Assembly: GCA_963804645.1 (NCBI GenBank)
Contig: CAWDRG010000009.1
Location: 1,216,001 to 1,280,000 of the forward strand
DNA from: an uncultured Bacillota bacterium
Lineage (GTDB): Bacteria; Sysuimicrobiota; Sysuimicrobiia; Sysuimicrobiales; Segetimicrobiaceae
Length of the DNA stretch: 64,000 nt
Direction of reading: 5' to 3'
Shown here: positions 3,844 through 64,000 of the stretch, piece after piece
Layout: every line of letters starts with the position of its first letter
How positions within the stretch are numbered: the stretch's first letter is position 1
The notes under the pieces: generated by a model
Databases searched by the model: none
Seen by the model: the letters and a program-made list of their open reading frames with translations, nothing else
What the model was told of the DNA's origin: nothing
Made by a program: the position numbers and the translations under genes

Positions 3844-6800
3844 CTACTCGCCGGGCGCGGAGACCGCGCCGCTCAGGCCGAGCTGGCGCTCGACGAGGTC
3901 GGCGTACAGTCCGCCGCGCCGCGAGCAGGCTGGTGTGCGTGCCCGTTTCGACGAGGCGTCCCTGGTCGAGTACCGCGATCAGATCGGCGGCGCGGACCGT
4001 CGACAGCCGGTGCGCGATCACGATCGTCGTGCGGTCGCGCATGAGTGCGTCGAGCGCTTGCCGCACGAGCGCCTCGTTGAGCGCGTCCAGGTGCGAGGTG
4101 GCCTCGTCGAGGATCAGCACGGGCGCGTTCTTGAGGAACGCGCGGGCGATCGCCACCCGCTGCCGCTGGCCGCCGGACAGCTGCACGCCCCGCTCGCCCA
4201 CGCGCGTGTCGAGGCGGTCGGGCAGGCTCGCGACGAGGTCGGCCAACGCCGCGCGCTCGAGCGCGAGGCAGGATCTCCGCGTCGTCCGCGTCCGGCTTGG
4301 CGAGGAGTACGTTCCCGCGCAGGGTGTCGTTGAAGAGATACGTGTCCTGCGCGACGAGCGCGATCCGGCGGCGCAAGTGGTCGAGCGCGTACGCGCGCAG
4401 GTCGTGGCCGTCGAGGGTGATCGAGCCGCTCGCGGGATCCCAAAAGCGCAGCAGGAGGTTCGCGGCGGTGGTCTTGCCCGCGCCCGAGGGGCCGACCAGC
4501 GCCACGGTGGCGCCCGGGGGGACCTCCAGACTGACGTCTGAGAGCGCCGGGCGGCGCGCCCCAGGATAGGCGAACGTGACGCGGTCGAACCGGATCGCCG
4601 ATCCGCCGCGCGCAGGCGGCCGCGGGGTCTCCGGGCCGTCGGTCACGGTGACCGGCTCGCGGTGGACGCGGTGGAGCCGCCGGGTCGACGCGAAGGTATC
4701 CGCCAGCTGGCGGCCGACGTTCGCGATCTCCGAGACCGGCAGGAACGCCGCGACCGCGAGCAGCGTGAGCAGCGGCAGCACTCCCGGGTCGAGGCGCCGG
4801 TGGGCCGCGAGCCACGCGCCCGTAGCGGCGACGGCGAGGCCGCCGAGCCCCATGCTCACCTCCAGCTGGGCCGTCTGGTGCGACAGATCCCGGTAGAACT
4901 CGAGGCGCGTGGTTTGATAGGCGCCGACGATCTCCATGAACTCGGCGCGGCGGCGGCCGACCGCCTGGAACGCGACCAGCTCCGAGAGGCCTTGAATCGT
5001 ATCGGCGACGTGGGCCGTGAGCCGCCCGAGGCCTTCCCGGGCGCGGGCGCCGATCTCGTCGATGCGCCGTCGAAGGAACAGCGGCCCGATCGCGACGTAG
5101 GCGAGCGGCGGGAACAGCGCGAGGGCGACGGGCCACGCCACGATCGCGAGGACGACGAGGACGGCGGCCGGGGTGAGCAGCGCCACCGCCGCCGGGGTGA
5201 GCGTGTGCGCGTAGAAGAACTCGATCGTCTCCACGTCCTGCGTGGCAAGGCCGACGAGGTCCCCCGACCGGCGGCGCAGCAGGTACGCCGGCGCGAGGGC
5301 GTCCAACTTCGCGAACAGCGCGATCCGCATATCGGTCATCAGTTTGTACGCCATGACGTGGGCGAGGTAGGCCTCGACCCACTGCAGGAGCCCGACCAGC
5401 GGCGTCACCACGGCGAGCAGCACCAGGAGCCGGCCGTACGGCGCGTGGTGCCGCACCGCCACGACGATCAGGGCGCTCGCGACCGCGACGCCGACGAAGG
5501 CTGAGACGCGGCCGATCCCCGACAGCATCGTGACCGCGAGCATCCCGCGCAGCGGCGCGACGAACCGGAGCAGCATGGCGACGGTTCCGCCGAGCGGCAG
5601 CGCATCGGCGCGCACGATCGCGTCCGACGGCTCCTCTTCATCCGCGCTCCCGAGGAGGTCGGGGGTGCCCCGCGCCTCCGCGGGACGCGCCGCGCGCGGC
5701 TCGGCCGCGGGGCCGCGTTCCTCCGCCTGGCTTCCCATCAGGCGCTGATACGCGCCGTCGAGCCGCATCAATGCGTCGTGCCGGCCGCTTTCGACGACCC
5801 GACCGCCCTCGACCACGAGGATGCGATCCGCGTCGATCACGCTGGAGAGCCGATGCGCCAGGATCAGGGTCGTGCGGCCGGCCATCAGCCGGTTGAGGGC
5901 CTCCTGAATCACCGCTTCGTTTTCCGCATCGACCGACGACAGGGCCTCGTCGAGGATCAGAATCGGCGCGTCGCGCAGGAGGGCGCGGGCGATCGCGAGG
6001 CGCTGCCGCTGCCCGCCGGACAGCTTGGCCCCGCGCTCACCGATGACCGTCGCGTATCCCTGGGGCAGCAGCTGGATGAACTCGTGCGCGTTCGCAGCCC
6101 GCGCCGCGGCGTGCACCGCGTCCGCGCTGGCGTCCGGCCGGCCGAGCCGGAGGTTCTCCTCGACCGTCCCGTGGAACAGGTAGGTGTCCTGCTGCACCAC
6201 CGCGATCCGCGCGCGCGCCTGTTCGGGGTCGATCGTCCGCAGATCCCGGCCGCCGATGCGCACGACGCCCTCCTGCGGGTCGTACAGCCGCAGCAGCAGG
6301 CGTGCGATCGACGACTTGCCCGCGCCGCTCGGCCCGACGATCCCGACGCGCTCGCCGGCGTCGACGGAGAATGACAGCCCGTCGAGGGCGATGCCGCGCC
6401 GGCCCGGGTAGGCGAACCGCACGCCCTCGAACGCGATCGTGGGGCTCAGCGACACCGGCGCCGTCCCGGCCCCCGGCAGCGCCGGTACGTCCGCGTCGAG
6501 CAGCGCCGTGATGCCGATCGCCGCGGCCTGGCCGACGAGGCCCTGATGCAGCACCGTCCGGAGGTCGCGCAGCGGCCGGAAGATCTCGGTGCCCGCCATG
6601 AGGACGATCAGCAGCGCCTGCAGGCTCATGAGCCCATGGGAGACCCGGTAGGCGCCGAGCGTGAGGGCGACCGCCGCGCCGCTCGCCACCACGAAGTCGG
6701 CGACCCCGCGGCTCGAGAGGTTGGTGGCGAGCACGCGGATCGTGTCGCGCGACAGCGCGCGCGCCCGGTCGGCGAGCATGCGCCCCCGCGCGGCGCTCTG

Positions 6801-61383: not shown

Positions 61384-61459
61384 GCGCCCGTAGCTCAGCG
61401 GATAGAGCGTCGGCCTCCGGAGCCGTAGGTCGGGGGTTCAAATCCCTCCGGGCGCGCCA
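61384..61459 (+). tRNA. tRNA-Arg(CCG)
   Basis: GCGCCCG-TA-GCTCAGCGGATAGAGC-G-TCGGC-CTCCGGA-GCCGT-AGGTC-GGGGGTTCAAATCCCTC-CGGGCGC-G-CCA, 76 nt. Confidence 0.96.
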
Positions 61460-61527
61460 TATTTTATTAGGGTTTCTGCGCGTAGTCGTGCTAGCGTTCG
61501 GCTACTCCTGATAACGGATTGATAACG
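61430..61527 (+). repeat. att-like repeat, copy 1 (tRNA 3' 30 nt + 68-bp arm)
   Basis: TCGGGGGTTCAAATCCCTCCGGGCGCGCCA-TATTTTATTAGGG...CCTGATAACGGATTGATAACG. Confidence 0.9.
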
Positions 61528-61725
61528 TCGGGGAGAAAAGCCGGCAGATGCGCCTTCTCCGCCGAGGGGCCGATGATGTCTTTCGAGAACGGTCTCGCGG
61601 ATAAATCATTCAGATGAACAGTATTCCCCCGCAAGAGCGCAGACTTACCATTTAGTCACAGTTTTTGCCCACCGTAGGATAAAGGTGAAATCCGGCGAGA
61701 TCCTGGTTCCGCGCGGGGTGAGCGC

Positions 61726-62397
61726 ATGCGAAGGTTCGCAGCAGGGGTCACGATTTTACTTGCGATCGTGATGATGCTCGCGCTAAAGGATGCGCGAGCC
61801 AATTTGATCACCAATGGAAGTTTCGAGACGCCATTGGTACCGGTGGGGAACTTTACGAACTTCTTGACCGGGAGTACGTTAATCACCGGTTGGACTGTTA
61901 CGGGGCCAGAAGTCTCCGTAGTGAGCGGCACGTTTACCCAGTCCGGCTTCACCTTTCCTGCCCAAAATGGCAATCAGTGGCTTGACCTCACCGGAGATGG
62001 GACAAATTCGTTTGAAGGCGTGGTGCAAACGGTCAGCACGACACCGGGAACAAACTATGATTTGTCCTACTGGGAGGGGAATGTGTCCGGGGGGGTTTTT
62101 GGCACTACAAGTACGGTCGAAGTACAATTGAACGGTGTGTCTGCTGGTTCTGTGACGAACAGCACCCCGGGCACCACGTTGACCTGGCAACAGTTCGCCC
62201 TTCCGTTCACGGCGACCGGCGCCACGACGACAATCGAGTTCGACAATCTTGACCCCAGCAATGACAACTCCAACGGCCTCGACAACGTGGATTTGGAACT
62301 CGCAAGCACATCACCGGTTCCGGAGCCGTCTTCGCTCTTGTTGCTGGGTTCTGGATTGTTCGGGTTGGCCGGCTTGGTGCGGCGTCGCTTCGCCTGA
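61726..62397 (+). CDS. PEP-CTERM sorting-domain protein (DUF642-like beta-sandwich)
   Basis: Signal peptide; 'NLITNGSFETP'; Thr/Gly/Asn-rich; C-terminal 'VPEPSSLLLLGSGLFGLAGLVRRRFA'. Confidence 0.9.
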   Translation: MRRFAAGVTILLAIVMMLALKDARANLITNGSFETPLVPVGNFTNFLTGSTLITGWTVTGPEVSVVSGTFTQSGFTFPAQNGNQWLDLTGDGTNSFEGVVQTVSTTPGTNYDLSYWEGNVSGGVFGTTSTVEVQLNGVSAGSVTNSTPGTTLTWQQFALPFTATGATTTIEFDNLDPSNDNSNGLDNVDLELASTSPVPEPSSLLLLGSGLFGLAGLVRRRFA

Positions 62398-62425
62398 CTA
62401 AGTTGATGTGCCGGTTCAGATAGAA

Positions 62426-62523
62426 TCGGGGGTTCAAATCCCTCCGGGCGCGCCATATTTTTTACGGGTTCCTGCGCGTAGACGTGCTGGCGTTCGGTTG
62501 TTCCTGATAACGGATTGATAACG
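62426..62523 (+). repeat. att-like repeat, copy 2
   Basis: 98 bp; 89/98 identical to copy 1 by hand alignment, with the tRNA-derived 30 nt identical. Confidence 0.92.
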
Positions 62524-62561
62524 GCACCCGAGTCGCAATCATGGACCCATGGAGAGTAACG

Positions 62562-63038
62562 ATGGCCAGCAATATCAGCAAATACGTCGTTCTGAATGAG
62601 GGCGATGGTTTGAGGTTTCAATCCGGGCCGGGTCGGGACCTGATTTTCAAGGTCACGGGCGAGGACACAAACGGAGCGTTCGATTACTTCATCGTCGAGG
62701 TGGCCCCGCATGGCGGCCCGCCGCTGCACGTCCACCACGCGCAGGAAGAGACCATCCACGTGCTGAAGGGCCGCTTCAAGATACGCATCGGCGACTCGAT
62801 TTCCACACTCATTGAGGGCGGCTTTGCTTATCTGCCCTCCAAGGTGCCGCATGCCTTCCTGAACCTGACCGATGCGGGTGGCGAGATTATTGTGGTCTAC
62901 ACGCCCGGCGGCGGGCACAAGTTTTACGAAGAGTTGGGGCCGGTCAGCCGGAGCGCGTCGCCGGACCGGCAGAAGATCGCGGCGGTGTTTGAGAAGTATG
63001 GCATGACCTTGCTGGGCGGACCCTTGACGGCGGATTAG
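62562..63038 (+). CDS. Cupin-domain protein (quercetinase-like motif)
   Basis: RBS GGAG; 'KVTGEDTNGAF', 'GGPPLHVHHAQEETIHVLKG', 'PSKVPHAF'. Confidence 0.88.
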   Translation: MASNISKYVVLNEGDGLRFQSGPGRDLIFKVTGEDTNGAFDYFIVEVAPHGGPPLHVHHAQEETIHVLKGRFKIRIGDSISTLIEGGFAYLPSKVPHAFLNLTDAGGEIIVVYTPGGGHKFYEELGPVSRSASPDRQKIAAVFEKYGMTLLGGPLTAD

Positions 63039-63083
63039 AACGAGTTCCAACCCAAAAGGCTGCGTCCACCGCCGCTCTATCGC

Positions 63084-63165
63084 CGGGAGTTCAAATCCCA
63101 GGGCGCGCCGTATCTTATCAGGGTTCCCGCGTAGTCGTGCTGATGTTCGGTCGTTTCTGATAGCG
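63084..63165 (+). repeat. att-like repeat, copy 3 (degenerate)
   Basis: CGGGAGTTCAAATCCCAGGGCGCGCCG-TATCTTATCAGGGTTCCCGCGTAGTCGTGCTGATGTTCGGTCGTTTCTGATAGCG; has small deletions and lacks the second TGATAAC. Confidence 0.85.
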
Positions 63166-63478
63166 TACGCGCGCCTTCCCGAATGTCCGCGTTGGCAAGT
63201 TGGCTTTCAACACATGCTGACTTTGACGACCTTCGCACCGGCTTGCAACCCAATGTCGTTGCCAGAGGCTGGCTATCGGCCTGGTTCCTTCGTCCGAGTG
63301 TTGGAATCATCCCTTAGGATGGCGGACCCGGAATTGTTGCGCGCTAATGAACTAGTTCGAGGGTTCGGTGTTCCCCCCCCCAAAGGAGGATGGACAATAT
63401 AGTGAGACGATGAGTAGGAGTGAAATAGACGGATGCCCGAATGGAATACGGTGTTGGCGGTAAATTTGGAGGTCAAAA

Positions 63479-64000
63479 ATGTTGAATCTCCGGCCGCTTA
63501 GTACCTGTATTCTCGCTCTGGCTGCGATCGTCACGGTGGGCTTCGTGAAAGCCGCATCAGCTGATGTTGTCACCCTGGATAACTTCACGGTCACACTGAA
63601 TGGCACGACGATCTTCGACGATTCGTTCGGTGCAGGTCTGACGCTGGCGGGGGGCAATCCCCCCGGTGCAATTCTGCCGTCGGGGCAGAACTTTTCTAAT
63701 GGCACGCCGGCAAACTACGGGGTCATCGGGACGGTAACCGAAACCGGAAACAGGGCGATACTAGATTCAGCGCTCGGAGCCAATTTCGCCGGGGGGCTCG
63801 CTAAACTCAATAACACCGACCTTCAAACAGGTCCGCCGATCTCTCCCTTCTCCTTGACGCCGAACGACGCTTTCACGACAACCGCCTTGTACAATCTCAC
63901 CGTGCCCTCGAACGTCGGTGGGTTTTATCAAGTCGAACTCGCAAGCAGCACCGCCTCGAATAGTGGGGATGGGATGGGCGACGTTGTCTCGGTCGACGTT
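63479..64000 (+). CDS. Secreted Thr/Gly/Asn-rich protein, 3' end outside window (possibly PEP-CTERM type)
   Basis: Not in the ORF track. GGAGG RBS, ATG at 63479, open for 174 codons to the window end; signal peptide 'MLNLRPLSTCILALAAIVTVGFVKAASA|DVVTLDNF'. Confidence 0.8.
   Translation, partial: MLNLRPLSTCILALAAIVTVGFVKAASADVVTLDNFTVTLNGTTIFDDSFGAGLTLAGGNPPGAILPSGQNFSNGTPANYGVIGTVTETGNRAILDSALGANFAGGLAKLNNTDLQTGPPISPFSLTPNDAFTTTALYNLTVPSNVGGFYQVELASSTASNSGDGMGDVVSVDV

Follow-up and report, generated by a model that had tools for sequence, protein, structure and literature searches.

A probable miniature tandem accretion array of mostly one-gene units at the tRNA-Arg(CCG) attachment site of an uncultured peat bacterium

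The window analyzed here is a 64,000-nt stretch (G000:C9:1216001-1280000) of the 1.4-Mb contig C9, which belongs to the 5.3-Mb genome G000 of an uncultured, high-GC peat bacterium. At its right end, a tRNA-Arg(CCG) gene is followed by a series of small gene-bearing units, and the units are separated by copies of the tRNA 3' end joined to a 68-nt arm. We read the locus as an array formed by tandem accretion at a tRNA attachment (att) site. This class of structure is known, and the locus is a miniature form of it rather than a new integron-like system. Directly observed are the array itself, the differences in its content between relatives, a first unit of younger age, and the absence of a recombinase gene. 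Site-specific insertion at the tRNA att site is very probably the origin of the array. That its units were already this small on entry has about an even chance.

The array and its anchor

The anchor of the array is tRNA-Arg(CCG), located at positions 61384-61459 on the plus strand (ARAGORN; Rfam tRNA, 67.6 bits). Repeat R1 (61430-61527, plus strand; repeat search, nhmmer E 3.9e-30) is composed of the last 30 nt of the tRNA, from the T arm to CCA, and the R1 arm (61460-61527, plus strand). Repeat R2 (62426-62523, plus strand) is identical to R1 at 89 of 98 positions (91%) without gaps, including all 30 nt of the tRNA part (BLAST E 3e-33). Repeat R3 (63084-63165, plus strand) is decayed, with 76-84% identity and a BLAST E of 1.1e-11. 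With nhmmer it is found at E 2.8e-22 and extends to about 63179, and its position is also given by three shorter, in-register repeat families. R3 has lost the second of the two TGATAAC heptamers of the arm.

The array continues past the end of the window. Repeat R4 lies at window-equivalent positions 64552-64637 on the plus strand, 552 nt beyond the window, and is 77% identical (E 6e-12). R5, at about 65103-65145, is weak and is made up of the arm only. Its genome-wide E of 0.14-0.63 is not significant alone, but a metagenome contig and G004, the nearest genome, have well-preserved arms orthologous to it. A tRNA-like end fragment is found at about 65790-65822. A profile of the copies matches the 5.3-Mb genome at E 1e-30 to 3e-22; with such BLAST and profile values over a genome of this size, the repeats are far beyond chance.

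From start to start, the units measure 996, 658, 1467, about 570, and about 670 nt. The GC content of the array is 0.53-0.62, compared with 0.64-0.73 on either side. A preliminary description of this DNA had reported the tandem repeats, the single gene between successive repeats on the strand of the tRNA, the two tiny units (about 1.0 and 0.66 kb) with no recombinase gene of their own, and the fall in repeat identity with distance from the tRNA. All of these were found again, and R4, the decayed R5, and the tRNA end fragment are further copies of the kind that it had proposed to search for past position 64000.

Cargo genes

Unit 1 carries c1 (61726-62397, plus strand), which encodes a secreted protein of 223 aa with a DUF642 domain (Pfam 2.7e-14) and a PEP-CTERM anchor (1.6e-6). 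R2 starts 28 nt past its stop codon. Unit 2 carries c2 (62541-63038, plus strand; a start at 62562 is also possible), a cupin of 165 aa (Pfam Cupin_2, 7e-14), and R3 starts 45 nt past its stop codon. No close copy of this cupin is present in 61 genomes (G000 and 60 relatives), where the best non-self match is 35% identical over the full length and 38% over part of it. Unit 3 carries c3, which starts at 63479 on the plus strand, crosses the end of the window at 64000, and runs to 64405. This secreted protein of 308 aa has a PEP-CTERM-like end that scores 19.9 bits, under the Pfam cut-off of 20.7, and its stop codon lies about 147 nt from the next repeat.

Two further genes on the plus strand lie beyond the window. 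The first, c4, encodes 113 aa and is without a family match; the second, c5, encodes a membrane protein of 130 aa. Four of the five units contain a clear open reading frame (ORF) on the strand of the tRNA. The fifth, the c4 unit, is ambiguous, as its candidate ORFs are of similar length (113 vs 109 aa). A Pfam scan of the unit ORFs found no integrase, excisionase, or transfer gene within the units, and c3, c4, and c5 have no match in PHROGs.

Assembly support

The preliminary description had raised the possibility of an assembly artefact. Metagenome contig L075 spans c1-R2-c2-R3 with 99.6% identity over 1840 nt, L073 spans c3-R4 with 97.4%, and L077 spans R4-c4-R5-c5 with 100%. R3 and R4 are also bridged by Logan contigs of two further peat metagenome runs. 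As the junctions are reproduced in independent metagenome contigs, the array is not an assembly artefact. Examined for excised circles or deletion joints, the low-depth Logan contigs of four runs contain only two joints (2800 to 2882 and 4950 to 5408 in the coordinates of L028), neither of them at a repeat.

Variation among relatives

Of the 23 family genomes, six match the arm model, as do six of the 94 genomes from the order. The six family genomes belong to two genera, one with G000, G004, and G006 and the other with G013, G015, and G017. An exact 30-nt arm pattern was also searched in genome contigs, viral contigs, and metagenome contigs. It matched three loci in genome contigs (two true, one by chance) and nine metagenome contigs, six of which hold true repeats; the viral contigs gave no match. 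The matches in L068, L071, L072, and L074 have no profile match and were rejected as chance. Nearly every arm lies next to tRNA-Arg(CCG) or a fragment of it, apart from an arm-only copy on contig C15 of G000 and arm-only matches in G017.

Unit content differs between relatives, and the break points lie at the repeats. In G004, the tRNA is followed by an insertion sequence (IS) and the arm, then by c1 and an R4-like repeat. Past an unrelated stretch come c5, a repeat that includes the arm, and the core genes; c2, c3, and c4 are missing. Metagenome contig L076 contains R1-c1, a single repeat, and then c3-R4, and is without the cupin unit. Its identity to the window is 98.6% in c1 and 94.8% in c3. 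In L069, the tRNA and an intact arm are followed directly by c5. Variable content of this kind had been anticipated in the preliminary description, as had a younger age of the unit next to the tRNA.

The age of the units was compared by synonymous divergence (dS) between G000 and G004. The dS of c1 is 0.21, below the values of the flanking core genes (0.66 and 0.62); therefore, the tRNA-proximal unit was shared after G000 and G004 diverged. The dS of c5 is 0.79, and the distal unit is therefore as old as the genomes. With these unit-wise differences, neighboring units have separate histories. The ratio of nonsynonymous to synonymous divergence (dN/dS) in the same comparison is 0.18 for c1 and 0.34 for c5, and judged by these ratios both genes are under purifying selection.

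The order of the core blocks downstream of the array also differs between G000 and G004 (L028 5822-10600 vs L064). A block with an S15 peptidase adjoins the array in G000 and is several kb farther away in G004.

Architecture of the repeat

Alignment of 14 arm copies from five genomes defines the conserved blocks of the arm, GTGCTGnnGTTCGG and TGATAAC-GGAT-TGATAAC. The two TGATAAC heptamers form a direct repeat, 11 nt apart. Conservation of the arm is blocky, as would be expected for binding sites, and its right boundary is sharp, directly after the second TGATAAC. On the reverse strand, the heptamer region presumably fits the IHF consensus WATCAANNNNTTR, and we take the layout of the arm to resemble that of the P' arm of lambda attP. 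Xer-dependent modules of the IMEX (integrative mobile elements exploiting Xer) and pdif types have dif-like flanking sites with inverted XerC/XerD half-sites. As read from the alignment only, the arm heptamers here are direct, not inverted, and a Xer-like gene is conserved in the family.

The tRNA part of the repeat starts at the 5' strand of the T-stem in G000 and G004 (30 nt in G000) and near the anticodon loop in G001, G006, and G013 (46-54 nt). We take these two starts to be the classic crossover sublocations of tyrosine integrases that target tRNA genes. Such sublocations were reportedly set out by Williams in 2002. Directly upstream of the repeat core there is only a weak tRNA-like trace.

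The repeats were also examined for folded structures. A search of Rfam over 9 kb found the tRNA only, and RNAalifold gave -1.86 kcal/mol and five pairs for the 14 arm copies, with no consensus RNA structure. Folded as single-stranded DNA in both orientations, R1, R2, and R4 have z values of +0.43, -0.00, +0.42, +0.30, +0.90, and +1.11 against shuffles. Folds no better than those of shuffled sequences mean that the repeats are not attC-like.

Other candidate features of the arm were tried and rejected. A GTTCG hairpin seen by eye is broken in several aligned copies and was dropped. A sigma-70-like promoter match (9/12) is present in R2 only, and the region holds three such sites where 1.6 are expected. 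A sigma-54 site, judged by eye, has a misfit in both spacing and GC dinucleotide. Separately, a 24-nt inverted match with 75% complementarity is found between 61401-61424, in the D-arm and anticodon stem of the tRNA, and 63058-63081, just upstream of R3; it may be due to chance.

Arrays at other tRNA genes

Arrays are not confined to tRNA-Arg(CCG). In G000, for 19 of the 52 tRNA and transfer-messenger RNA (tmRNA) genes, the last 25 nt recur at least once (at most four mismatches) within 30 kb downstream, with one match being a neighboring tRNA gene. A BLAST search gave 54 rows of tRNA fragments that do not fall in tRNA genes, and three places appear twice among these rows. The tRNA-Thr gene has five copies (C6:87595-99599) and the tmRNA gene has six (C22:135556-151614); neither contig has a match to a tyrosine or serine recombinase. 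Long conserved arms are also present in the array of tRNA-Ser(CGA) (C9:695682-704571).

Unit size across the G000 arrays is continuous, ranging from 0.42 to 8.9 kb. By a crude longest-ORF test, five of the small units outside the tRNA-Arg(CCG) array have their gene on the same strand as the tRNA and six on the opposite strand. The co-orientation noted in the preliminary description therefore holds at tRNA-Arg(CCG) and is not a rule for the other arrays.

Integrases in G000 and a genus relative

G001, a relative from the same genus, has a 10-kb island at its tRNA-Arg(CCG) gene (L063, G001:C64, 6000-16510), which is bounded by a 48-nt copy of the tRNA 3' end. The island encodes a tyrosine integrase of 378 aa at its distal end (Pfam 1.9e-27), a type I restriction-modification system (hsdR/S/M), a HEPN protein, and a cytidine deaminase.

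The intact tyrosine recombinases of G000 are an obviously mobile pair on C15 and one single-copy Xer-like gene; the others are fragments. The Xer-like gene is a housekeeping gene, shared by 21 of the 23 family genomes. The serine recombinase family PF00239 has four matches in G000, none of them on C9.

A C-terminal fragment of a tyrosine integrase (155 aa, G000:C11:25539-26006) terminates at a distance of 7 nt from the tRNA-Pro(TGG) 3' end. Over 93 aa, it shares 49% identity with the G001 integrase. Further integrase pieces are found within the tRNA-Arg(TCG) island of G000.

Proposed mechanism and alternatives

The favored reading, which we hold to be about evenly poised, is the serial entry of small integrase-less circles that were served in trans and later reshuffled through their repeats. 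Through Campbell-type recombination, small circular DNAs would have been inserted in succession at the tRNA-Arg(CCG) 3' end. Each circle would have carried a core from the T arm to CCA, the 68-nt arm on its 3' side, and either no cargo gene or one. At each entry, the incoming copy would have made the tRNA complete again and older copies of core and arm would have been shifted downstream, so that the newest unit would adjoin the tRNA and displaced copies would decay. The recombinase would most likely be a tyrosine integrase acting in trans, from a larger island like that at the G001 tRNA, and the arm would be a putative binding arm for the integrase or an accessory protein. The locus retains no such integrase gene, nor does the assembly contain an intact one. 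The present-day units are integrase-less, similar to cis-mobilizable elements (CIMEs), and would be lost, exchanged, and reshuffled between strains via recombination at the 98-nt repeats.

Several observations argue for serial entry of small circles. The tRNA part of the repeats starts at the classic crossover positions, units vary one by one between relatives, and c1 is younger than the flanking core genes. The cargo is intact, under purifying selection, closely spaced (28 and 45 nt between stop codon and next core), and of lower GC content. The arm is patchy and conserved in blocks, 19 of 52 tRNA/tmRNA genes share the habit, and a live island is present in G001.

Other findings weigh against it. 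The tyrosine recombinase family PF00589 has 11 matches in the whole of G000 and none on C9, which leaves the contig without the distal tyrosine recombinase that the preliminary description had suggested looking for. The array contigs of G004, G006, G013, and G015 are likewise without a tyrosine recombinase, and the nearest one in G017 is 40 kb away. Unlike lambda-type attP, the repeats are not accompanied by a second conserved arm on the upstream side of the internal cores, and no 8- or 9-mer is common to the 10 upstream flanks beyond orthologues. At the G001 island, just the first ~27 nt of the arm recur, beside the distal tRNA fragment. The junction in L076 is inside the arm, not the core, so homologous or illegitimate recombination fits as well. 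Gene-less units of 0.42-0.48 kb are found in G006, in G013, and in the tRNA-Ile array. Together, the gene-less units and truncated integrases in other G000 arrays mean that trimming of larger elements happens.

A recombinase hidden in the larger units of relatives was considered and rejected. A 5.3-kb unit in G013 has ORFs of 408 and 841 aa, and neither matches anything in Pfam (to E 5) or PHROGs.

The trimming of larger elements is the strongest alternative and is possible, if doubtful. Multi-kb integrase islands would have integrated serially, and each would later have shed the integrase together with the bulk of the cargo, leaving the arm-proximal gene. The 10-kb integrase island at the same tRNA in G001, the truncated integrase at tRNA-Pro(TGG), the integrase fragments in the tRNA-Arg(TCG) island, the gene-less 0.42-0.48-kb units, and the continuous range of unit sizes in G000 (0.4 to 9 kb) are all as expected for such remnants. 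However, four consecutive units each have one complete gene, with purifying selection where it is testable (c1 and c5), and the next core starts only 28-147 nt past the stop codon. A tblastn search with the G001 integrase found no integrase fragment at the array locus. Random deletions would also need to have ended repeatedly at the core boundary.

A more novel reading extends serial capture to a general system and is unlikely as a joint claim. The locus would be a tRNA-anchored platform for gene cassettes, in which minimal circles of a tRNA-3' core, one 68-nt arm, and a single gene are captured serially at tRNA 3' ends by a trans-acting recombinase that is unrecognized or was lost from the assembly. 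It would operate much as an integron does, with tRNA att sites as its base, and many of the 19 tRNA/tmRNA loci would be active.

Homologous recombination on its own is improbable. Here, the 98 nt would serve as plain homology for RecA-type crossovers of circles or linear DNA from related strains, with no dedicated recombinase. A single-crossover Campbell insertion duplicates exactly the shared segment, and no recombinase gene is found at any of the arm arrays. The L076 junction inside the arm and the mosaic divergence between neighboring units are also consistent with this process. However, it leaves unexplained the first joining of a new gene to core and arm, the start of the segment at classic tRNA crossover positions, the blocky conservation of the arm, and the arrays at about 19 different tRNA/tmRNA genes.

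An integron- or CRISPR-like platform, which would use folded single-stranded sites and an integron-type integrase, or staggered cuts at the ends of the tRNA-proximal repeat with repair that duplicates the 98 nt, is highly improbable, and its attC version is largely refuted: the one-gene, co-oriented, tightly packed units, the sharp right boundary after the second TGATAAC, and the decay of repeats with distance from the tRNA are in its favor, but the six single-stranded folds (z -0.00 to +1.11) include no attC-like hairpin, neither intI nor any other recombinase is on the contig, the repeat has a left boundary that varies between genomes (30 vs 46-54 nt), and no orientation rule holds elsewhere (five same, six opposite).

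Small circles served in trans are thus the preferred reading, at roughly equal chances of being right or wrong, over trimming, which is rated a doubtful second, and over pure homologous exchange, which is rated improbable; the data do not decide between them.

Insertion sequences near the arms

In G004 and G015, an IS481-like element of 1.28 kb lies between the tRNA and the arm. Its transposase (HTH_32 and rve) is encoded on the strand opposite the tRNA. Copies are found in G000 (C19:54680-55959, C19:12667-13867, and C11:131864-131905), in G004 (L064, 11216-12509), in G015 (L067, 4679-5972), and at loci L086-L115. The insertions in G004 and G015 have 3-bp duplications, ATT and TCC.

Among 26 distinct left-end junctions in the family, 23 are located 9-10 nt past the CCA of a tRNA gene or a 3' fragment, and the same end always faces the tRNA; three junctions are without a tRNA end. 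The targets are tRNAs for Arg (four anticodons), Val, Lys, Ile, Phe, and Ala, as well as Pro-like fragments. From the position of these junctions, the element looks like an insertion sequence specific for the 3' flank of tRNA genes. A literature search of titles and abstracts found no such targeting for IS481-family elements.

A second insertion sequence, of 2.28 kb, has four near-identical copies (G000:C15:375975-378253, equivalent to L029 5975-8253, with the others on C15, C17, and C10). It contains a 585-aa ORF with no match in Pfam or PHROGs. One copy ends 8 nt before the arm-only repeat on C15, and no tRNA part is present on its other side. A role for this element in mobilizing the arm was rejected because the flanks of the other three copies are unrelated.

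Relation to known systems

Integron arrays and clusters of attC sites lacking integron integrases (CALINs) are made up of short, mostly one-gene, co-oriented units with repeats of about 100 nt. The array resembles them in its small, one-gene, same-strand units (clear in four of five). The preliminary description had likened the locus to an integron, a likeness that does not extend to the machinery. There is no intI, no attI, and no recombinase on the contig, and the repeats are direct copies of the tRNA end and arm with no attC hairpins.

The preliminary description had not recognized the organization as a named system. However, the stacking in tandem of integrase-less, cis-mobilizable units at the 3' ends of tRNA and tmRNA genes has been described (PMC3146451; bioRxiv 10.1101/2020.12.28.424599). 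The name CIME is taken from a review (PMC5704250). In the CIME and accretion concept, as presented in the first of these sources, units bounded by att-type repeats and without integrase or transfer genes are arranged in tandem at the target gene and are taken to move with a neighboring element or by way of its integrase (PMC3146451). The array shares repeat-bounded, integrase-less tandem units beside a tRNA gene, with direct repeats of the tRNA 3' end (R1-R4, R5, and the end fragment). It differs in its unit size of 0.57-1.47 kb, in its 98-nt repeat of core and one arm, and in the absence of a helper element at the locus or on the contig.

The ssrA islands of Dehalococcoides are a close parallel. 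According to McMurdie et al. (2011; PMC3146451), these islands are numerous, lie in tandem downstream of one small RNA gene, and are strain-specific, and their 3'-end direct repeats have extra flanking conservation; some have no integration module and are discussed as CIMEs. The repeat is given there as 20 bp, the islands span many kb, and 16 have a module with a CcrB-like serine recombinase. Compared with the islands so described, the array differs in having single-gene units and no recombinase.

The tycheposon islands of Prochlorococcus (Hackl et al., bioRxiv 10.1101/2020.12.28.424599) are another. In the preprint's account of them, partial tRNAs separate the elements and newcomers push older ones inward. 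Degenerate remnants and scattered partial tRNAs are described, and several tRNAs and the tmRNA serve as sites. The same account defines tycheposons by a hallmark tyrosine recombinase and replication or packaging genes. In contrast, these hallmark genes are not at the locus described here, and the host is a high-GC peat bacterium. No PF00589 match is present at the locus or on C9, in a search that did not include the tycheposon-specific recombinase clade.

The H47 island of Escherichia coli (Azpiroz et al., 2011; PMC3191183) is, by the paper's abstract, bounded by long imperfect direct repeats and has no recombinase of its own. It is excised and integrated in trans, using several crossover segments. 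Unlike the array, H47 is a single 13-kb island, and going by the content of the abstract it is not located at a tRNA end.

Unusual features of the array are its units of 0.57-1.47 kb with mostly one intact gene, the 98-nt repeat with a conserved arm, the presence and age that vary from unit to unit in a natural population, and the lack of a recombinase nearby. A literature search for such miniature arrays found nothing closer than the Dehalococcoides, Prochlorococcus, and H47 cases, which is not proof of absence.

Significance

If the units are only remnants, the locus is a clear, population-supported example of the way flexible islands grow and are trimmed one unit at a time, in a lineage whose genome has about 50 tRNA scars. 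If the units truly move as sub-kilobase, one-gene pieces with no more than an att core and a single arm, tRNA att sites would be cassette platforms with no resident integrase. This would provide uncultured soil bacteria with a cheap route of gene flow and offer a natural minimal substrate for the study of tRNA-specific integrases.

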